Of a DNA stretch of 64,000 bases, positions 2,663 through 22,322 are shown piece after piece. The first letter of the stretch is position 1. Each line of letters opens with the position of its first letter. The DNA is from Candidatus Levyibacteriota bacterium (GTDB lineage Bacteria; Patescibacteriota; Microgenomatia; Levybacterales; UBA12049), in contig PLZJ01000003.1 of the NCBI GenBank assembly GCA_003152105.1, forward strand, positions 6,899 through 70,898, given 5' to 3'. The notes beneath the pieces are model-generated. The model made no database searches. It worked only from the letters and a program-made list of their open reading frames with translations, and had not been told where the DNA came from. The translations under genes were made by a program, and so were the position numbers.

Positions 2663-5600
2663 TTATTTTATTAAGATGTGAATTTTTACAATATTTATTG
2701 TCATTGCATTATCATTTGATCTACTCATTTGATACTTTCCAGATTTATCCGTATATGTAGCCCATATTGTCTCGGTTCCAAGTTGTGATGGGTTTGTGCT
2801 TGTGCTATCAATTGCAACAAAAGTACACAATATTGATGATCCATTTTTGCTATAGTAGTCATAAAATTCTCCTGTTAACTTACCTTTCTTGTTATAAAAA
2901 GCAATATTTCCTTTTTTTGGAAATGTGCCATCTATAAGCGTAGTGATAGATTTAAAGCAAATACCACTTTTTAAATTTGCAGATGTTGGTGGAACTGCAG
3001 GTATAGTTGTAGTAATTTGAGTACTTGTAAAAATCTTATGAACCGGTGGAGAAATGTGCCAATTTCTATCACACGTTGCTATCCCTCGATTAAATCCATT
3101 CTCAAAAGTTAATGAATTACCAAGTTCAGCTTTTAAAGGATCTGATGACGTGTCATTCCACGCATAGGCAAGAAGTGATACTGCTCCATTAGTACAAAAA
3201 CTTTGAGATTGCGTTGCAATATCTTGTGCACGTGGGTTAATATAATTTTGAGTTGGAATATAAAATGTTTGTGGTGTACCGATGATTGGTTGCATTTTTG
3301 CATCCCACCCGTTCCACTGTAACTCAGATAGTAAATATGACAGCAACGTACTCATTGACCAATCTATACGTGTTGCGTCACCGTTTATATTTCTATAGTT
3401 ACCAGCGTAAATATATAATGAAATATAATTACATGCGTCGGGAGAATAATTTACGATTGCTCTATCAAATTGGCCTCTAGATACCTGCGTTAATGTGGAA
3501 CCAGTATAATAGTCTAAGCTTGCACCATATGCACAAACGGTAGGTAGAAATTTTTGTGTGTGAGCATTATTTTGATCAACTAGATTCTGTACAAGTTCTA
3601 AAGCATCCTTAACATTTCCAACATAATCATCTTGAAGATAATACCCTGCAATTAAAGGATCATTATTTGTTTTATGCAAATAGCTAGTTGTATCGTGAGA
3701 AAGTAGTTGTAGGTCTGAGTTAGAAATCGAACAGTTTTGATCTCGAGTATGAAGCGCAGGTACGAGTGGACAGGATTTATTTAAATATTTGTTAATTAAT
3801 ATAAGTAACGAATTATCCAAATAGGTAATGTGATTTGCTTTATATAATGCATACAACGGAGAATTTTTCGCAATATGTGAACTAACCGTATAAGTTATAC
3901 CAAGCGATGAAGCTTCCTCTAAAGCAGCTTCATTTGAGGCAATTGCATTTTTATTTACATTTGTAATATCATATGCGCCAAACTTATTTTGTAACGACAA
4001 AGATGAGCGATCTGTTGAAGGTAAAGATTTAATAATTACCGCAAAATAATCAACTGGTAAAGTAAGGTTTATTGAACCACTTCCTATTTGTGAAGAAACA
4101 TATGCGCCAAAAGTATTATAAATATATGCCGTAAGCGTGGAGTTATCATTATATGTATAAATGCCTGATTTTTGGGTTAATATCTTATCAGTTCCGATTA
4201 TATAATCTTGATGCAACTCAAGTGGAGTAATTGGATATATTTTGGTAAGAATATTGTTAGTTGTGGAAAATGGAACTGCCGAAGCATAATACAATACACC
4301 GTAATGAAGATAATTTCGAAGTATTTGCGCATGTGTTTGATCTGCATCTTTTGCATTATCAATATACGGTTTTGAGAATCCATTTACCGAATAGCTATCA
4401 ATTTTTTCGTAAGCAATTGGCGAAAACAATTGCGCTTGCGGGGCAACTTTTCCTTGTAAATCATAATTTAAATCTTCGGCGAATCTAGGAATATGCATAT
4501 CTGGCAAATACTCTTCGTTTAATTCCGGTACGTAATTGGCAATAGCTGACTTACTACTTTGCTGGGTAACAAAATCAACTAAATCTTTTTGTGCTAAAGG
4601 ATAATGAAGTGATAAATCTTCTTTTTCGTTTACAATTTGAAATGTTACTGGATTAATGTCAGCAGTATTTAAATCTTGATTTGTGGATTTCGAAGTACTA
4701 CTACCATAATTATATGCTTTAACATACCATGGATGAGGAAAACTTGGATCATTAGTTGGATCAATACCACTGACTAGATTATTACCGAGGGTATTCGCAT
4801 AGCCTTCAAAATCATCAAAGTATATACCATCAATTCCATAATTTTGTAACATGGTTGTTAATACCTGCTTAAGATGTGACGTATAAGATAAATTCGGATC
4901 ATTTAAAAATAAATTAAATGCAAATGGTTTATAAAATTGATATGAAGTACAGTTTGGATAATTAGTATCTATAGATTTAGAAACACGTTGACACACTAAA
5001 TTATCCGTTGAAGGAGATTGTGGTTGGCTTAAGGGATAGGCATAATTTGCCGAACACATGTTGCTATTTTTTAAGGCCGATATTTCACTATTTGCTTGTG
5101 ATATCGAAACCCTTGTATCTGCCAATCCACAACTATAGGTATATGATTTACTCGTCGTAGAAGCACCTAATACAGAACTGTCAGGAAGAGTAGTAGTTTG
5201 ATCATATACCGGAGTAGGAATAGTATGAGGCGGCAAAAATACCTTATTATTAATTACAACTGTTGGAGTAGGCAAAGCAGAGGGCGTTGGCGAAACTGTT
5301 GCAAGAGGTGAAGATAGGCTTGGTGTAGTATTTATTAATGCATCACTGTATGTATTTCCATATGATCCGTCTGGATTATCATCAGAACCAACATTATGTT
5401 CAAAGTAAACGAGCACTTTTACTTTTTTCTTTGTCAGTACCGAAGCACGTTTTATTTGTTTAATAACAGGAATTAATACGTTGTTAATTTGAGAAGTATT
5501 GATAGTAGCTGAGTTTCCAAACGTATACTTTAGATACGTAAGTCCTGGAATTGGATTATCATTTAAATCATATGCTTGCTGAGTAGATGATAAAGACTGA

Positions 5601-6919: not shown

Positions 6920-6948
6920 TTGACTTGTCAGTACATTATCAGTACAAT
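6920..6948 (+). promoter_or_regulatory. Sigma70-like promoter (TTGACT-17-TACAAT) with two CAGTACA direct repeats 11 bp apart; candidate autoregulatory operator of the TA module
   Basis: Read directly upstream of ATG 6955. The -10 box is only 6 nt from the start codon. Confidence 0.45.
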
Positions 6949-6954
6949 ATTACT

Positions 6955-7197
6955 ATGTTAATTCAAAAGATATACAGAAACGGCAATTCTCTCGCAGTTA
7001 CAATTCCTAAACAATACTTGGAAGATCTCTCCTTAATAGAGGGTTCACAAGTTGTCGTTGAAAAGAAAGGTAATGGCATTCTTCTCACAACTAAAAAACA
7101 AACATTAGCACCTGATGTTGATGGTAAGTTCATGAAAATGGTTGATAGCTTCATCGATAAACATGAGGATGTACTTCAAAAACTCGCAAATAAGTGA
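6955..7197 (+). CDS. AbrB/MazE (SpoVT-AbrB fold) family antitoxin
   Basis: MLIQKIYRNGNSLAVTIPKQYLEDL matches the swapped-hairpin N-terminus of AbrB/MazE antitoxins. The ORF-track TTG start at 6925 was replaced by ATG 6955. Confidence 0.7.
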   Translation: MLIQKIYRNGNSLAVTIPKQYLEDLSLIEGSQVVVEKKGNGILLTTKKQTLAPDVDGKFMKMVDSFIDKHEDVLQKLANK

Positions 7198-7592
7198 ATA
7201 AAAAACACCATTATATAACCCCCAGTCAAGTGCTTGCAATTCATGATCAAGTGATAGAAAGATTTGGAGGATCAACAGGTCTTCGAGATTTAAGCCTACT
7301 TATATCTTCTGTACTTAGACCTCAAGCTAGTTTCGACGGTAATGATTTATATCCAACTCTATTTGAAAAAGCCGCGGCGTTGCTTCAATCACTTCTTAAA
7401 AATCACCCGTTTGTTGATGGAAATAAAAGAACATCGTTAACTTCGACTGGTATTTTTCTACAACTTAATGGATGGGAAATTGAAAATAGTCATGGTGAGG
7501 AAGTAGATTTTGCTATTAGAGTAGATAATGAGAACTTAACTTTGGAGCAAATTTGTTTGTGGTTAAAACAGCATTCTAAAGAACAAAATTAA
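7194..7592 (+). CDS. doc: Doc (death-on-curing) Fic-family toxin
   Basis: Fic/Doc motif HPFVDGNKRTS. The GTG start overlaps the antitoxin stop (GTGA), indicating translational coupling. Confidence 0.8.
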   Translation: MNKKHHYITPSQVLAIHDQVIERFGGSTGLRDLSLLISSVLRPQASFDGNDLYPTLFEKAAALLQSLLKNHPFVDGNKRTSLTSTGIFLQLNGWEIENSHGEEVDFAIRVDNENLTLEQICLWLKQHSKEQN

Positions 7593-7616
7593 TTTATCCT
7601 TAAGCATAGGACTTTG

Positions 7617-7690
7617 TGGACGATTAGGGATTCGGACCCCAGACCTCTTCAGTGTAAATGAAGCGCTCTAACCAGCTGAGCTAATCGTCC
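7617..7690 (-). tRNA. tRNA-Val (anticodon TAC)
   Basis: Reverse complement folds as a cloverleaf: GGACGAT acceptor, GCTCAGCTGGTTAGAGC D-arm, anticodon loop TTTACAC, T-loop GGTCCGAATCC. Confidence 0.85.
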
Positions 7691-7818
7691 AATTCACTCT
7701 CCGTGAGTTTTCATATTATACAAAAATAATTACCTTAGTCACAAGATGTTGAATAAATCACTATCTTGCCACGAAGTAAGCACTTAAAATCTTTGTATTG
7801 TAGTGCTATAATGCTGGC

Positions 7819-8262
7819 ATGAAACTTTTTATATATTCATTATTTACCTTCATGCTTTTTTCGATTTTTGGAGCTTCTGCACATTCTTCATTTGCACAAG
7901 CTACTCCCGTCGAATTTAATTCATTTACGACAAAAGATACGGCAACATATGTTGCATCAACCTTAAATACACAATGCTCAAAACGATTATTAACAGATAT
8001 TTTAAAAAAATATATTGTTACAGATACGATTTATCAAGATACGCTTCATAAGGAAATATACTTCAACGTATTACATCTTAAAGGAAATAGGCAAGATCAA
8101 GTATATGGGTATAAATTTGGGGATGGAAAGCCAAAAGGAATAAGAAATACGCTTTGTGTAGAAATTGCAGCATCAGATTCGTATATGCGTTTGAATTTTG
8201 ATGCAAATAAAATAGTAAAAATATATTTATTTACGAGCAGTACGTTTCCTTTTGGAACATAA
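7819..8262 (+). CDS. Small secreted hypothetical protein
   Basis: N-terminal signal peptide (MKLFIYSLFTFMLFSIFGASAHS). Low GC like the host. Confidence 0.45.
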   Translation: MKLFIYSLFTFMLFSIFGASAHSSFAQATPVEFNSFTTKDTATYVASTLNTQCSKRLLTDILKKYIVTDTIYQDTLHKEIYFNVLHLKGNRQDQVYGYKFGDGKPKGIRNTLCVEIAASDSYMRLNFDANKIVKIYLFTSSTFPFGT

Positions 8263-8289
8263 TAACTCAAATATTTTAGTCCTGTAGTA

Positions 8290-8317
8290 TTGACATACCC
8301 TCTTTTTCTGTTATAAT
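8290..8317 (+). promoter_or_regulatory. Near-consensus sigma70 promoter (TTGACA-16-TATAAT) ahead of the GC-rich cassette; ~190-nt leader follows
   Basis: Read directly. Confidence 0.5.
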
Positions 8318-8543
8318 TTCACCTAACGAATGTGTTAAAGCTAAACATTTGCTGTTTAACGTAAGATACGTTCGAAAAAGCACTTTTACAAGAAAGGAAA
8401 TAACCAACAATCCTTCTAGCGAATAGTTTTTTAGCCTTGGCGAAAGCGTAAAGCGTCTCAGAATTGTGAAATTTAAATGACAATATCACGTCCTGGAGCA
8501 TTTTGCGCTTTTGTTAAAGCACCTATTCTACTATGGAGGCAGT

Positions 8544-8984
8544 ATGACCCCTTTTCGAGTCGTTCGTTCGTCGTATAGAATGACCGTTTCGTACGAAGAT
8601 GGCCCCGGTTCACTTACAAATCCTGAGCAAGTACTCAGCGCAAAACACGTCGTTTTGACTGGTCAATGCAAAGATCCGAGTCTTTTGACGGCTGAAGCAC
8701 TTAGCTTCCATATCAGTCGTTTTCCTACATGTGATTACGAAGATTTTGGACCGGCAGTTGGAGATCATGATTATTCATACGAACTCCAAAAGAAAGAGGG
8801 AGACAAGTGGGTGTATGTCACTTTTTTGAATCCTTATGGTCGTAAGATCACATGTGAACATCAGAGTGAATACGATGAAGACCCAGAACTGTGGCCAGAG
8901 GAAGAAGACGAAGACGAAGAACCAAGGCTACCTCCCGCAACTGTTTTTAAACGATTTTCGACACACTTCAATCAAAGGAGATAA
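8544..8984 (+). CDS. Hypothetical protein with acidic C-terminus, in the GC-rich cassette
   Basis: ORF with strong RBS (GGAGG-4nt-ATG at 8544; the ORF-track start is 8511). GC is markedly higher than surrounding DNA. No recognisable motif. Confidence 0.45.
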   Translation: MTPFRVVRSSYRMTVSYEDGPGSLTNPEQVLSAKHVVLTGQCKDPSLLTAEALSFHISRFPTCDYEDFGPAVGDHDYSYELQKKEGDKWVYVTFLNPYGRKITCEHQSEYDEDPELWPEEEDEDEEPRLPPATVFKRFSTHFNQRR

Positions 8985-8986
8985 CA

Positions 8987-9421
8987 ATGATTGATACTAA
9001 AAATCCGTTCACCAATCTTGACGAAGTCAGAACCGCACGTGAGTACTGTATCACAATCAGAGATCACGCCGACGCGTTCATCGCTCACAGGCACTTTGAT
9101 CGGTACAGAAACGGGACAATTCCGAGCATTTCAACTCGTCAGTTCAAACTCGTTGAATCGACGTGCATCGAAGCAGAAGATATTCCAGCTCACCCAACAC
9201 TTCCTTACGAGGACGTGCCGGAACTATTCCTTCAACCTACATTTATGTGTGTTGTTTACAGCTCACATAAAGTCGCACACTTTCCGGACAAAGACGTGCA
9301 TCTGAGGATGATTCACCTTTGTGCAGAATGGGAGCAAGAGTATCACCTCTATATCGTCGACGATCAGGTCGTTATGACGCTTTTGAGTCGCAATCAAGGA
9401 CGGTTAAATCCCATTAGCTAG
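8987..9421 (+). CDS. Hypothetical protein, in the GC-rich cassette
   Basis: AGGAG RBS 8 nt upstream. Starts 3 nt after the previous stop. GC-rich. No recognisable motif. Confidence 0.45.
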   Translation: MIDTKNPFTNLDEVRTAREYCITIRDHADAFIAHRHFDRYRNGTIPSISTRQFKLVESTCIEAEDIPAHPTLPYEDVPELFLQPTFMCVVYSSHKVAHFPDKDVHLRMIHLCAEWEQEYHLYIVDDQVVMTLLSRNQGRLNPIS

Positions 9422-9513
9422 AGTCGGAATCGACGCGTTGGTTTAGGGTAATAAGCAGAAGGAAATTCATGTAGCTACTTTGTTACATACAACCCCTTCT
9501 CACCCTTCCTTTC

Positions 9514-9567
9514 TTTCCGTCTACTGCTATAAGCAGTACTGATGAGTCCTTTTAGGACGAAACGAGA
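9514..9567 (+). ncRNA. Type III hammerhead self-cleaving ribozyme
   Basis: Read directly: stem III 5' strand ..ccGUC, with cleavage expected after C9521; stem I hairpin UACUGC-UAUAA-GCAGUA; core CUGAUGA; stem II GUCC-UUUUA-GGAC; GAAAC with A15.1 pairing to U16.1. All invariant core nucleotides are present in canonical order. Confidence 0.7.
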
Positions 9568-9852
9568 TACTTCGATTATATATAGTGCCCCATATGGGAC
9601 GATGTTCGAACCTATTTGTGCCTAAACATCGATCAGGGTGAAAAGACAAGCTTGCTTTCTGCAATTAATCACTTCAAAAAGAAGGAAATTGAATGAAAAT
9701 TTATTTTCTTCCTTCCAATAATGAGGTTGGAACAATTTCTTCGACCATTCTCCAAACCAGATCTTTAGGAAACTCACTGTATCATATGTGACAAAAGCTT
9801 CTCCTTACAAACGGTTGAATTAAGAGCATCTAAGAATAACTAAGAATAATTA

Positions 9853-9881
9853 TTGACAAACTTATATTTGAGCACTATAAT
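9853..9881 (+). promoter_or_regulatory. Perfect consensus sigma70 promoter (TTGACA-17-TATAAT), 8 nt upstream of ATG 9889
   Basis: Read directly. Preceded by the direct repeat CTAAGAATAA x2 at 9829-9848. Confidence 0.6.
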
Positions 9882-9888
9882 AAATAAA

Positions 9889-10260
9889 ATGACTAAAGAA
9901 AGTATAGATCCAAACAAAGTTTACACCACTCAAGAAGCAGCAGATGTCCTTGGTGTTTCTGAACAAATACTAGTTATGCAATTAAGGAATGGTAAAATTA
10001 CTGGACAATATATTGGAAAAGGGTGGAAAATATTGGGTCAGAACATCATTGACTTTCTAAAAAAACCTCAAGGATTAATTGAGCGGTTAGCTGAAACTAT
10101 GCTGGAAGAAGAAAGTAAGTCAGACTCGTCAAATAAACAAAGCCCTGTAGAAAATGCTGTTCAAAGATTACTCAATGGTAGCTCAACATCTCCAAGATAT
10201 ACTCCTGAACAAATTGATTTAGCACTAAAACAATACAAAGAAAAGAAAGGAATTACCTAA
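9889..10260 (+). CDS. Helix-turn-helix DNA-binding protein (excisionase/MerR-like HTH) with a low-complexity C-terminus
   Basis: YTTQEAADVLGVSEQILVMQLRNGKI is a typical excisionase-family HTH. The ORF-track TTG start at 9853 lies inside the promoter and was replaced by ATG 9889. Confidence 0.55.
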   Translation: MTKESIDPNKVYTTQEAADVLGVSEQILVMQLRNGKITGQYIGKGWKILGQNIIDFLKKPQGLIERLAETMLEEESKSDSSNKQSPVENAVQRLLNGSSTSPRYTPEQIDLALKQYKEKKGIT

Positions 10261-10262
10261 TT

Positions 10263-10694
10263 ATGCCAAGTCTTAAAATGGTCAAGCACCAGGCATGGGC
10301 TTTTTATAGTAAATGGAAAAAACAAAAAACTTTCTCTCCAGCTTTCAACTCTGATGTTAGAGTATCACTTAAAGGTTGGTACCACATAACTGGAGCAAGA
10401 GGATTCAAACAGAGAAGTGCAGGCGATGTATATCGAAGACTTATGATTTTACATCATGCAAAAACTATAATTGAAACAGCAACCACGATTCAAAACGTTC
10501 AAGTCAAAGGGAAAATCACTTATTATGCCTTAGACTCTGTTACGCAAGTTTCAGAAAATGACAAAACTGAGTGGAGAAAATTAAGAGTAATTATTATTGA
10601 CGATATTAAAGGAAACAAAGTTTTTTATTCAGTTATGGATAAAAAACCAAGTATAAGACCTAAAATACAAAAAAAGAGGATGCCTCACCCTTAG
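10263..10694 (+). CDS. Hypothetical basic protein, coupled to the HTH gene
   Basis: Starts 3 nt after the HTH gene's stop. No recognisable motif. Confidence 0.4.
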   Translation: MPSLKMVKHQAWAFYSKWKKQKTFSPAFNSDVRVSLKGWYHITGARGFKQRSAGDVYRRLMILHHAKTIIETATTIQNVQVKGKITYYALDSVTQVSENDKTEWRKLRVIIIDDIKGNKVFYSVMDKKPSIRPKIQKKRMPHP

Positions 10695-10790
10695 GAATTA
10701 ACGTTAGGGTACTGAGCGGTAAAAACCGCTTCATCCTCAAAAGAAGTATAACAAAATAAAATATTTTTGTCAACCTCTACTATAGGCCTG

Positions 10791-10878
10791 TGGTGCGGAT
10801 GAGAGGACTTGAACCTCCACGCCTTATTCAGGCACAGCCACCTCAAGGCTGCGTGTATGCCAATTTCACCACATCCGC
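10791..10878 (-). tRNA. tRNA-Leu (anticodon GAG), type II with long variable arm, CCA encoded
   Basis: Reverse complement GCGGATGTGGTGAAATTGGCA...anticodon loop TTGAGGT...long variable arm...GGTTCAAGTCC...CGCACCA. Confidence 0.85.
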
Positions 10879-10931
10879 ATGTGTAACATTATACCTAATA
10901 TATTCTCTATTTTAAACCTTACATCTATATG

Positions 10932-11015
10932 TACCGTGGAGAGGAGTCGAACCTCCATGCCTTTTTGGGGCACTGGTACCTGAAACCAGCGCGTCTGCCA
11001 TTTCGCCACCACGGT
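10932..11015 (-). tRNA. tRNA-Leu (anticodon CAG), type II
   Basis: Reverse complement ACCGTGG-TG-GCG-AAATGGCAGA-CGC...anticodon loop TTCAGGT...variable arm TGCCCCAAAAAGGCA...TTCGACT T-loop. Confidence 0.8.
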
Positions 11016-11111
11016 TTATGTAAAATGGTGCTATGTATTATAACGTAGCTTCGATTGTAACAAAGTCATATTGTATTGACAAGGAACCTTAAATATGTAA
11101 ATATTATATGA

Positions 11112-11699
11112 ATGAGGAAGTTTATTCTGCTCGCAACTTTCTTAATCGTAACTCCAATATTTCTAATTTTTAGCATCATATTTGTTGCTTTGATTCATTT
11201 TGAGCATATTCAGTCTCAATTCTTAACAAGCGTAGCTCAGCCGCAAACAGTTGCGTATGCAGCTTTACCTACAACCCAAAATAGCCTTTCTGATCAAATA
11301 ATAGAACAAAATGCCAGAGCTGAGATGTTAACGCAGTTTTTTGAGCAATATAATTCACCCCTTGCGCCGTACGCACAAACAATCGTAGATGAAGCTGATG
11401 CATATAATCTTGATTTTAGACTTCTTCCCGCAATAGCTATGCAAGAATCTGATGGTTGTTTAAAAGCACCACCTAACTCTGATAATTGCTGGGGATTTGG
11501 TATCTATGGCCATACGGTAACTCGCTTTGATTCATACCCAAGTGCTATTCAGGCAGTAAGTAAGGCTTTAGCCGAAAAATATGCCTCAAAAGGTCTTAAA
11601 ACTCCTGAGCAAATAATGAGTATTTATGACCCTCCAAGCTCGGCAAATGGAGGAAGATGGGCCGATAGCGTAAGCTATTTCATGAATAAACTTCAATAG
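11112..11699 (+). CDS. Membrane-anchored peptidoglycan hydrolase of the lysozyme-like superfamily (GH73 glucosaminidase-like / SLT-like)
   Basis: N-terminal TM. AIAMQESDG catalytic-Glu motif and NCWGFGIY motif. Paralog of the 11884..12444 gene. Confidence 0.5.
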   Translation: MRKFILLATFLIVTPIFLIFSIIFVALIHFEHIQSQFLTSVAQPQTVAYAALPTTQNSLSDQIIEQNARAEMLTQFFEQYNSPLAPYAQTIVDEADAYNLDFRLLPAIAMQESDGCLKAPPNSDNCWGFGIYGHTVTRFDSYPSAIQAVSKALAEKYASKGLKTPEQIMSIYDPPSSANGGRWADSVSYFMNKLQ

Positions 11700-12560: not shown

Positions 12561-12595
12561 CATCTTGTGATATAATAGGCATCCAAACAAGCACT

Positions 12596-13423
12596 ATGGC
12601 AACAACATTACAAAAAGCAATAGACGGAACAATTACCTTAACAATCGCAATTCCTGCTGCAGATATTGAAAAGGCAAAAAAAGAAGTACTTGAATCATTT
12701 TCTAAAGAAGCGCAAGTAGCTGGATTTCGAAAAGGAAAAGCTCCTAAAAAACTAGTTGAAGATAAGGTGAATGAAGATAAGCTACGTGAAGAAATTCTTC
12801 GAACTACACTTCCCAAAGCATATGTTGCTGCGGTTACAGAACAAAAGTTGCAACCAGTTCTTAATCCAAAAATTCATATTAATAAAATAGAGGAGGGGAA
12901 AGACTGGACTTTTACTGCAGTTACTTGTGAAGCGCCAAAACTTAATCTTGGAGATTATAAAAAAAGAGTACAAGATGTAACGGCAAAAAGCAAAATTATT
13001 GTCCCTGGAAAAGAGCAAACTTCACCAAGTCTTGATGATATTGTTTCAGCACTTTTGTCAGGAATTGATGGCGCAATTCCTTCGGTTATTTTAGATCAAG
13101 AAGTTGATAGACTGCTCGCACAAACCCTTGATGAAATTAAAACGCTTGGTATATCGCTTGAGCAATATCTTTCTTCAACAAACAGAACAGTTGAGGGAAT
13201 TAGGCAAGAGTATAAAAAAAGAGCTGAAAATGATGTCAAATTAGAATTTGCGCTTCAACAAATAGCTGAAGATGCAAAAATTGTTATTGAAGAAAAAGAA
13301 ATAGATGAGGCAATACAAAAAGCCAAAGACAAGAAAGAACAAGAACAAATGCAGGCCAATCGCTATTTATTAACGAGTATTTTACGACAACAAAAAACCT
13401 TTGATTATTTAAAAAACCTATAG
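12596..13423 (+). CDS. tig: Trigger-factor-like protein (short, ~276 aa; N-terminal ribosome-binding domain signature)
   Basis: GFRKGKAPKKLV matches the trigger factor GFRxGxxP ribosome-docking signature. The start was moved to ATG 12596 to clear tRNA-Leu. Confidence 0.5.
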   Translation: MATTLQKAIDGTITLTIAIPAADIEKAKKEVLESFSKEAQVAGFRKGKAPKKLVEDKVNEDKLREEILRTTLPKAYVAAVTEQKLQPVLNPKIHINKIEEGKDWTFTAVTCEAPKLNLGDYKKRVQDVTAKSKIIVPGKEQTSPSLDDIVSALLSGIDGAIPSVILDQEVDRLLAQTLDEIKTLGISLEQYLSSTNRTVEGIRQEYKKRAENDVKLEFALQQIAEDAKIVIEEKEIDEAIQKAKDKKEQEQMQANRYLLTSILRQQKTFDYLKNL

Positions 13424-21417: not shown

Positions 21418-21608
21418 AGTAAAATCATATGATGATTACTTGTAGTTTGTCAAGAAGGTTGGAAAGGACGTTAGGTACAGGGAAAGGCGCAATGCCAAGA
21501 AAACAAAAAAATTGAGATTATGAACAAGCTAGTTGCTTGACAAACCGCATTTTTTTGCAATCTTTTGTACCTAACGCACTACTTAACCCGATCAGGTCGA
21601 CTTACCGG

Positions 21609-22322
21609 TTACCGGTTCCATTTCGGGCAGTAGTATAGATCCCACGTCGTAGAAACCTTATGGCCTGGCTTGTACCACGAAGGGTTCGTGACACTATTGA
21701 TGTTGTAAAGACCGCCGGCCTTTGGAGTTTTGAGCGTCGTCTTTGATCCCTTGTATTGGAAGTGACTACCGATCGTGTTTGGCAAATCAGCGTAAATCCA
21801 GTACTTTGGAAGACCACCGACGAGTTTGGCTACTGCTTTCATGTTCGAAATTGACGGACAATTCGATGGTTGAGCAGGATGTTGATATGCGCACGTGAAT
21901 TGGGCTTGTGACTCCATTCGCTTGACACCAGGTGGGTCGATTCTGTAAAGAAGCAGATCATGGTCCAGCTTTGGTTTGAGATATGCTCCAAACAGTGTTC
22001 CGACCGAAGCGGCAGGTGCAGTGAGGGCAACCTTTGTCGTAGCGTTTGGGTTATTGATGTCAGAATAGAAATCCCACATCAGTATGTTAGTTGAAGGATC
22101 TCCATTGTTTTCCCAATCATACTCAGTTCCACCAACCGTAGATGCTGGAGTTGAGGTAGTATTGTTACTCTGACAATACGTTGGCGACTGCGACTTAGAT
22201 GAAAGAACAACTTGTGCTTGCTGCGAAACGTGCCGGGCGCTAGCGATAGTGCTTGGAAACGTAATGGCAACAAGTGTCAAAGCGATGAAAGCGCAAAACG
22301 ATGCGATAAATCTGTTGTACAC
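21609..22322 (-). CDS. Secreted hypothetical protein, GC-rich relative to the neighbourhood
   Basis: Signal peptide MYNRFIASFCAFIALTLVAITFPSTIASA. Composition is visibly more GC-rich. No recognisable motif. Confidence 0.45.
   Translation of the reverse strand: MYNRFIASFCAFIALTLVAITFPSTIASARHVSQQAQVVLSSKSQSPTYCQSNNTTSTPASTVGGTEYDWENNGDPSTNILMWDFYSDINNPNATTKVALTAPAASVGTLFGAYLKPKLDHDLLLYRIDPPGVKRMESQAQFTCAYQHPAQPSNCPSISNMKAVAKLVGGLPKYWIYADLPNTIGSHFQYKGSKTTLKTPKAGGLYNINSVTNPSWYKPGHKVSTTWDLYYCPKWNR

Follow-up and report, generated by a model that had tools for sequence, protein, structure and literature searches.

A compositionally foreign two-gene cassette with a phage-class type III hammerhead ribozyme in the tRNA cluster of a Levybacteria-like chromosome

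What kind of element is a pair of small genes, rich in guanine and cytosine (GC), that stands among transfer RNA (tRNA) genes with its own promoter and a hammerhead ribozyme at its 3' end? The pair, two open reading frames (ORFs) designated ORF1 and ORF2, lies in 64,000 nucleotides (nt) of a Candidatus Levyibacteriota assembly (GCA_003152105.1, contig PLZJ01000003.1, positions 6,899 to 70,898), hereafter the window. Our analysis favoured, with a modest degree of confidence, the view that the cassette is an accessory operon of phage type that entered by horizontal transfer and occupies a variable site in a tRNA cluster, within the chromosome of a Levybacteria-like member of the candidate phyla radiation (CPR). 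The arrangement is a further example of the known phage-style gene block delimited by hammerheads, present here as a solitary copy in a CPR chromosome, and is not a new class of element. The cassette comprises the following features.

8290-8317, plus strand: sigma-70-type promoter, TTGACA-16-TATAAT with a TG extension, a perfect 12/12 match
8324-8543, plus strand: 5' leader of about 220 nt, its start predicted from the promoter
8487-9662, no strand assigned: GC-rich, compositionally foreign block, the second-ranked segment of the window by maximum-sum segmentation
8544-8984, plus strand: ORF1, 146 amino acids, isoelectric point (pI) 4.8, C-terminal tail acidic; belongs to a rare family that is uncharacterised
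8987-9421, plus strand: ORF2, 144 amino acids, pI 5.6, histidine-rich, an orphan with its own AAGGAG
9440-9510, plus strand: segment separating ORF2 from the ribozyme, with a stable hairpin and, after it, a C/U-rich tract (RNAfold)
9514-9568, plus strand: type III hammerhead (Rfam RF00008, 36.1 bits; covariance model R1, 52.5 bits, an inflated score), consisting of the stem III 5' strand (9514-9520), the cleavage site after C9521, stem I (9522-9527/9533-9538), the core CUGAUGA (9539-9545), stem II (9546-9549/9555-9558), GAAA (9559-9562) and the stem III 3' strand (9562-9568)

Maximum-sum segmentation delimited a block of 1176 bp with 44.6% GC, compared with 35.4% for the window. The region of ORF1 and ORF2 (8544-9421), with 45.0% GC, deviated strongly from the window value when compared with equal-size windows (z = 3.7) and was the top tetranucleotide outlier of the 64 kb, with an L1 distance of 0.47 (mean 0.30, standard deviation 0.039). 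GC content at third codon positions (GC3) was 0.49 in ORF2 and 0.37 in ORF1, compared with 0.22 ± 0.06 for 57 window ORFs, among which ORF2 ranked first and ORF1 third in atypical synonymous codon use. Because both GC3 and synonymous codon use were shifted, amino-acid content cannot account for the composition of the two genes. Both showed the coding-type order GC1 > GC3 > GC2 (0.54, 0.49 and 0.35 in ORF2). An initial annotation had described 8500-9700 as GC-rich and recently acquired; windowed GC, tetranucleotides and codon use bear out the first point, and a check for GC and codon statistics like those of the flanking genes found the region to be an outlier in all three measures. All the sequence features listed in that annotation were recovered.

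The window forms part of a metagenomic scaffold of 1.14 Mb (WOOD18-1_SAMN07125042), and the genomic position of the cassette was examined by comparison with related genomes. The closest relatives of the window's trigger factor (12590-13423) showed 54-57% identity and came from metagenome-assembled genomes, including one named Candidatus Levyibacteriota, which places the host among the CPR/Patescibacteria. In L006, the closest relative, about 4 nt separate tRNA-Val(tac) (8170-8244) from tRNA-Leu(gag) (8249-8332); next come tRNA-Leu(CAG), two lytic-transglycosylase-like ORFs, tRNA-Leu(TAG), trigger factor, a DUF5660 gene and tRNA-Val(GAC). The order in the window is identical, with o195-o186-tRNA-Leu-trigger factor-o230-tRNA-Val kept between the two genomes, and the same first two tRNA genes enclose an additional stretch.

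7691-10790, no strand assigned: 3.1-kb stretch absent between the same tRNA genes in L006
7616-7690, minus strand: tRNA-Val(TAC), left border of the stretch (ARAGORN and Rfam)
10791-10878, minus strand: tRNA-Leu(GAG), right border of the stretch (ARAGORN and Rfam)

This stretch contains a secreted-type ORF, the cassette, a helix-turn-helix (HTH) gene and a basic 143-amino-acid ORF, and none of its five ORFs gave a tblastn match in relatives L006-L011. Clearly foreign composition is confined to the 8487-9662 core, the flanking ORFs being host-like. Horizontal acquisition, as first proposed from composition, fits the codon use and the absence of the stretch from the relative's syntenic tRNA cluster as well.

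These data also bear on whether the genes of the cassette could be native and lineage-specific, their unusual composition being a product of amino-acid content or expression level. Consistent with such an origin, host-like DNA of 30% GC, outside the GC-rich block, carries the promoter and the initial ~90 nt of the leader; the other ORFs of the 3.1-kb stretch are host-like, and the window holds a second GC-rich single-gene islet (21575-22305), so that genes of this sort are not confined to the cassette. The GC3 values of ORF1 and ORF2 are unexplained by amino-acid content, however, the trigger factor and other presumably well-expressed window genes have a GC3 of about 0.2, and L006 lacks the stretch at the syntenic site. 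We consider a native origin very improbable.

The hammerhead that had been placed at the 3' end of the cassette was confirmed at 9514-9568. It is intergenic, lies 92 nt past the ORF2 stop on the same strand as ORF1 and ORF2, and has a complete catalytic core (CUGAUGA and GAAA, with the G-U-C cleavage triplet at 9519-9521). Stem I has 6 bp (UACUGC/GCAGUA) and stem II 4-5 bp (GUCC/GGAC), both closed and both present in the minimum-free-energy fold, and the core-adjacent pairs of all three stems are intact (U-A, G-C, A-U). The full consensus core, the GUC triplet, the closed stems I and II and the open stem III are those of Rfam RF00008 (Hammerhead_3), whereas the score falls below the gathering score of that family and the Rfam alignment flags non-canonical pairs in stem III. 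A consensus scan called no canonical intrinsic terminator between ORF2 and the next promoter; judging from its predicted fold, the hairpin at 9440-9510 is possibly a 3'-end protecting stem or a weak terminator.

Searches of viral contigs placed this ribozyme in a phage class. More than 120 IMG/VR contigs share its core and stem II. About 20 of them belong to type III, their stem III 5' strand reading either UUUCCGUC, as in the window, or CCGUC. Model R1, a covariance model built from 16 phage type III copies with the window sequence excluded, scored the window hammerhead at 52.5 bits, a value inflated because the training set had been picked by a pattern from the window. With R1, 33 viral loci yielded 67 copies; a contig often had 2-5 of them, on one strand and 0.3-3.8 kb apart, and copies that the search pattern had not preselected scored 41-67 bits. 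The class covaries strongly, with 96.9% of cells paired and both-side changes in 12 of 14 pairs, and the differences between stem I of the window ribozyme and that of the nearest phage copy (L022) are compensating changes. An exact-sequence search with stem I returned nothing from viral or metagenome collections, nor did a blastn search of the 3' intergenic region against phages. On the phage contigs, the ribozymes lie 2-38 nt past the stop codon of a same-strand ORF and delimit blocks of 1-3 small genes, many of them acidic and mostly of unknown function; the GC content of these contigs (32-67%, median 41%) is compatible with the 44.6% of the block.

Comparison with the IMG/VR type III arrays, such as those of L038 (five copies) and L029 (four copies), revealed the same core, stem II (GUCC/GGAC) and short stem III, the 5' strand UUUCCGUC being that of L022 and L049. 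Location after the stop of a same-strand ORF, a block of about 1 kb and small acidic cargo proteins are also shared. The window copy differs in its greater distance from the stop (92 nt vs 2-38 nt), in a C.A mismatch at position 16.4/15.4, in its loops (UAUAA and UUUUA vs ~7 nt and NAAA) and in its cargo proteins, which are unrelated.

Type III arrays of 3-5 copies, on one strand and 0.3-2.3 kb apart, were observed in L038, L029, L120, L106, L098, L122, L065, L031, L018, L048 and L130. Between the ribozymes of the phage arrays, a conserved basic protein of ~290-330 amino acids and an amidotransferase-like protein of ~375 amino acids recurred.

In prophages, hammerheads flank single genes or short blocks of non-constant genes, and processing of long transcripts has been proposed as their role (Perreault et al. 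2011, PMC3088659). The window resembles these blocks in having a sense, intergenic hammerhead just downstream of a short block of small genes of variable identity, in its foreign composition, in the adjoining tRNA genes and excisionase-like HTH gene, and in the proposed role of cutting a longer transcript to an operon-length messenger RNA (mRNA). It differs in having one ribozyme rather than a pair or array, in lacking an integrase or other phage gene nearby, in the ribozyme type (type III here, type II being the newly found type that the paper introduces), in its CPR host, and in its 5' end, which is a promoter and structured leader instead of a second ribozyme. The cassette likewise shares foreign composition, its own promoter, a position between tRNA genes and absence from a close relative with tRNA-associated genomic islands and phage 'morons', but it has neither integrase nor att repeats, and only ~1.2 kb is clearly foreign within the 3.1-kb variable stretch. 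Among the top full-text matches of a literature search, no paper paired "hammerhead" with either phylum name (CPR/Patescibacteria).

The type III hammerhead is the form typically seen in viroid-like agents, and ~1.2 kb would lie between the predicted transcription start and the cleavage site. On these grounds, the cassette could represent a circular RNA of viroid-like, retrozyme-like or satellite kind, copied into DNA or in a DNA stage, as the initial annotation had also considered. The window holds a single plus-strand ribozyme of one polarity, however, with no second copy, tandem arrangement or flanking repeat, and the ribozyme belongs to a class that is multi-copy in double-stranded DNA phage contigs. 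Five independent assemblies showed the same linear chromosomal junctions at 100% identity, with no circular junction and no population variation among them. A viroid-like or satellite origin is extremely improbable.

At the 5' end of the cassette, the promoter was one of two perfect TTGACA/TATAAT sites in the 64 kb (8290-8317 and 9853-9881), where 0.1 would be expected; the second serves the next downstream gene. A near-consensus promoter had been reported ~190 nt upstream of ORF1: the promoter itself stands, and is even perfect, but the distance from the end of the -10 element to the ORF1 ATG is ~226 nt. The leader forms a predicted hairpin (8412-8541; RNAfold -57.1 kcal/mol, z = -3.15), at the base of which CCUUC (8412-8416) pairs with the Shine-Dalgarno sequence GGAGG of ORF1 (8535-8539). 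Because it is rich in G.U pairs (9 of 47) and more stable on the sense strand (-41.4 kcal/mol vs -32.8 kcal/mol antisense), this hairpin probably acts as an RNA structure and not as a DNA recombination site. An attC/integron interpretation was set aside, the hairpins being strand-specific and G.U-rich and an integrase being absent, although no formal attC model was run.

The two genes are tightly coupled, ORF2 starting 2 nt past the ORF1 stop, and have the strong ribosome-binding sites first ascribed to them (GGAGG 4 nt before the ORF1 ATG and AAGGAG 6 nt before the ORF2 ATG). The proteins had been described as unknown and free of recognisable domains. The latter holds: Pfam, NCBIfam, PADLOC and PHROGs yielded nothing for either protein or for any member of the ORF1 alignment scanned singly, and sequence searches of the PDB gave nothing credible (ORF2 matched SufE with E = 0.08 over 30 residues). 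The former holds for database families but not for homology, as ORF1 has about nine distant homologues. Among 1.84 billion representative proteins, phmmer identified about eight (E = 2.6e-14 to 7e-4), to which a profile search with the ORF1 alignment A1 added one member, P0012. The homologues are 109-170 amino acids long, show 26-47% identity and are all acidic (pI 4.1-4.9); the family motifs YR(I/V)V, E(D/E)xPG(S/G) and GPxVGDx(D/E)YSYxLQ are all retained in ORF1. ORF2 matched only itself in 5.8 billion clustered proteins and in the 1.84 billion representatives, apart from P0009, a low-complexity repeat protein that was set aside, and a word-indexed homology search of ORF1 and ORF2 returned self-matches only. 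Single-sequence AlphaFold models of ORF1 and ORF2 were poor (predicted local distance difference test scores of 54 and 36), and fold searches with them were uninformative.

One further ORF1 match, P0005 (1712 amino acids), was set aside as repeat-driven. This HYR-like repeat protein contains 16 copies of a ~90-amino-acid unit, in which TWSYDDGNGN matches the ORF1 N-terminal TVSYEDGPGS (E = 5.6e-10); the P0005 repeat and ORF1 may share a beta-hairpin motif.

Two small genes spaced 2 nt apart behind one strong promoter could form a toxin-antitoxin, toxin-immunity or anti-phage defence module, with ORF1 as the acidic neutraliser, ORF2 as the effector, and the ribozyme and leader tuning their ratio. 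Addiction modules abound nearby (MazE-Doc at 6925-7592 and ParE-Phd further upstream), and the adjacent pair of HTH gene and basic 143-amino-acid ORF is arranged like a toxin-antitoxin system. However, neither ORF1 nor ORF2 matched PADLOC, Pfam, NCBIfam or PDB entries or belongs to a known toxin or antitoxin family, both are acidic, unlike the usual acidic/basic pair, and the homologues of ORF1 occur alone or with unrelated neighbours, so that the ORF1-ORF2 pairing is not conserved. A toxin-immunity or defence function, one of the candidates first put forward, found no evidence here, and we regard it as unlikely. From the small size and acidity of the family, its patchy distribution and its foreign composition, our best guess is an accessory or host-interference protein in the style of phages.

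The loci encoding the ORF1 homologues were then compared with the cassette. None of them had an ORF2-like neighbour, and none had a hammerhead detectable by Rfam or by R1. As ORF2 is also an orphan, the set of promoter, leader, ORF1, ORF2 and ribozyme is not a conserved module, and the self-contained recurring module first envisaged did not materialise: neither co-occurrence of homologues nor a 3' hammerhead was seen at the approximately nine loci. The contexts vary and often involve housekeeping genes. L133 has the homologue after elongation factor G, and L138 has it between FtsEX and a release-factor gene; in L134 and L137 it lies upstream of a class I aminoacyl-tRNA synthetase gene. In five of eight contigs, the GC content of the homologue exceeded that of the remaining contig by 5-17 points. 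L137 (3900-5250; 55-60% vs 38-40% GC) and L134 (250-1950; 57-62% vs 41% GC) showed islets of 1.3-1.7 kb with sharp boundaries, and islets were also present in L132 and L135. At the orthologous loci L134 and L137, the islet was 89% identical at the nucleotide level, compared with 73.6% for the adjacent synthetase gene. In the window, L135 and L137 alike, a long hairpin that is sense-specific and rich in G.U pairs stands between a sigma-70-like promoter and the ribosome-binding site, just 5' of the latter; the leaders of the family's genes showed no mutual sequence similarity except between the orthologous L134 and L137.

These islets suggest another explanation, in which ORF1-family islets are undescribed small mobile cassettes composed of a 5' RNA hairpin, 1-4 genes for small acidic proteins and, at the 3' end, RNA structure in the form of a ribozyme or of a conserved RNA of ~300 nt. 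Such cassettes would be exchanged among ultra-small, low-GC genomes, possibly via phages and without a linked recombinase, and the hammerhead would be an integral end. The discrete GC-rich islets in L137, L134, L132 and L135 agree with it, as do the greater conservation of the L134/L137 islet relative to its housekeeping flank, the conserved 3' segment of that islet, the direct repeats around the L137 islet and the recurrence of promoters with long-hairpin leaders. On the other hand, the islets share no sequence beyond the ORF1-family gene, no recombinase is present, the other islets lack a hammerhead, L133 and L138 have no islet, and the sample amounts to about nine loci on mostly short contigs. 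We judge this explanation quite unlikely.

Several structural details of the L134 and L137 islets were recorded. Apart from the shared ORF1-family gene, the gene content of L134 1-2260 and L137 3700-5510 is mosaic. The islets have in common a conserved non-coding 3' segment of 310 nt with a terminator-like hairpin at its end and a 12-bp 5' hairpin (AAGATTGGTGGC...GCCATCAATCTT), within which L134 carries an insertion resembling a miniature inverted-repeat transposable element. Complementary 12-mers bracket the islet (L137 ~3893 and ~5216), and direct repeats of ~50 nt flank it in L137 (3707-3757 and ~5380-5435).

Several observations weigh against the interpretation of the cassette as an acquired phage-type operon. 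No Pfam mark of an integrase or recombinase was found within 10 kb on either side, nor were other phage genes, the weakly excisionase-like HTH gene being the single hint of a prophage setting, and neither att-like repeats nor tRNA-derived direct repeats flank the 3.1-kb stretch, for which insertion vs loss is polarised by one relative (L006) alone. ORF1 and ORF2 had no homologue in phage or plasmid records (tblastn) or among the ORFs of 120 hammerhead-bearing viral loci, scans of metagenome and viral collections with the ORF1 alignment returned nothing, and the homologues in L133 and L138 have housekeeping neighbours and an unshifted composition, which means that the association of the family with mobile DNA is not a strict one. 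As for the ribozyme, in addition to the inflation of its R1 score, the RF00008 score of 36.1 bits (E = 4.3e-4 for the whole window) does not reach the gathering score of 48.5, and searches of the whole window, and of 7000-11500 with speed filters off, detected a single hammerhead, with no second or relic copy upstream. Stem III has three contiguous pairs followed by C.A (16.4/15.4) and then U.G and U-A; at this class position, 57 of 66 phage-class sequences have C-G and 3 of 66 are unpaired. The loops UAUAA and UUUUA also differ from the class consensus. Because of the mismatch and the loops, the activity of the ribozyme is uncertain, and from its sequence it may be slow or dead.

The sub-threshold score, the mismatch rare in the class, the single ribozyme in place of an array, the orphan status of ORF2 and the missing integrase and att sites would all be accounted for if the cassette were a decaying foreign fragment, with the hammerhead a non-functional relic and the ORFs, especially ORF2, no longer maintained as genes. 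However, the catalytic core is fully matched and the core-adjacent pairs are intact in three stems, stem I differs from the L022 phage copy by compensating changes, both ORFs are intact with strong ribosome-binding sites and GC1 > GC3 > GC2, the promoter is perfect, and ORF1 retains all family motifs. Decay is an unlikely but credible explanation.

If the cassette is an acquired phage-type accessory operon, its parts could act together as follows. The perfect sigma-70 promoter (8290-8317) would drive a transcript of ~1.2 kb, whose ~220-nt leader would fold into the long sense-strand hairpin, its base occluding the ORF1 ribosome-binding site. This hairpin could control translation or mRNA stability, for example by double-strand-specific cleavage or by melting, and ORF1 and ORF2 would be translated as a coupled pair. 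With no canonical terminator, transcripts extending past the 9440-9510 hairpin would include the hammerhead and could be cut after C9521. The predicted products are an mRNA of ~1.2 kb with a 2',3'-cyclic phosphate end behind a stable hairpin and a downstream RNA starting with a 5'-OH; the 5'-OH product of the Bacillus glmS ribozyme is a substrate of RNase J1. Cleavage would uncouple the cassette, with its strong transcription, both from the independently promoted HTH unit and from the tRNA genes that lie antisense beyond that unit.

As a clean and fully anchored example, the locus documents a type III hammerhead of the phage class within a CPR/Patescibacteria chromosome. With its ribozyme 3' of a strongly promoted orphan operon, it offers a simple test system for bacterial hammerheads as 3'-end or insulator elements. 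ORF1 represents a rare family of small acidic proteins found repeatedly in compositionally foreign DNA behind long structured leaders.

The remainder of the 3.1-kb stretch contains the following features.

7819-8262: secreted-type ORF inside the stretch
9853-10694, plus strand: neighbouring unit of host-like composition, made up of the second perfect promoter (9853-9881), the HTH gene and the basic ORF
9889-10260, plus strand: excisionase-like HTH gene, apparently leaderless
10263-10694, plus strand: basic ORF of 143 amino acids

The HTH protein (9889-10260) showed a weak excisionase/MamR-like match. Since the second perfect promoter ends at 9881 and the ATG is at 9889, the mRNA of this gene is probably leaderless. 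The basic ORF (pI 10.3) begins 2 nt after the HTH gene and had no matches, including none by tblastn among phage or plasmid records; the pair resembles an antitoxin-toxin arrangement. Between the ribozyme and the next promoter, GAAGGAAA stands in front of a putative coding ORF of 32 codons (9693-9791, MKIYFLPSNNEVG...), which overlaps a hairpin (GAAGGAA...UUCCUUC). At the left edge of the stretch, just upstream of tRNA-Val(TAC), a promoter-like site lies on the minus strand (7715-7744, TTGTGA-18-TATAAT), which may give this tRNA gene, split from the tRNA cluster by the insertion, a promoter of its own.

To the left of the cassette, 6925-7592 encodes a MazE-type antitoxin and a Doc/Fic toxin, and ParE and Phd/YefM genes lie ~7 kb further upstream on the source scaffold (L001 533-1046). 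In the tRNA cluster of L006, a 34-nt unit (GCCTGCACTGAGATCATTGTCAAATGACCGAAAT) occurs in three tandem copies just upstream of tRNA-Phe (7968-8068). The second GC-rich islet (21575-22305, 47.9% GC), the top-ranked segment of the window, has no hammerhead near it and consists of a single minus-strand ORF (21609-22322, 237 amino acids) with a signal-like N-terminus and no credible Pfam match. Its codon positions are flat (GC1 = GC2 = GC3, ~0.47), its codon use is as atypical as that of ORF2, and a candidate promoter at 22712-22685 would give it a leader of ~355 nt.

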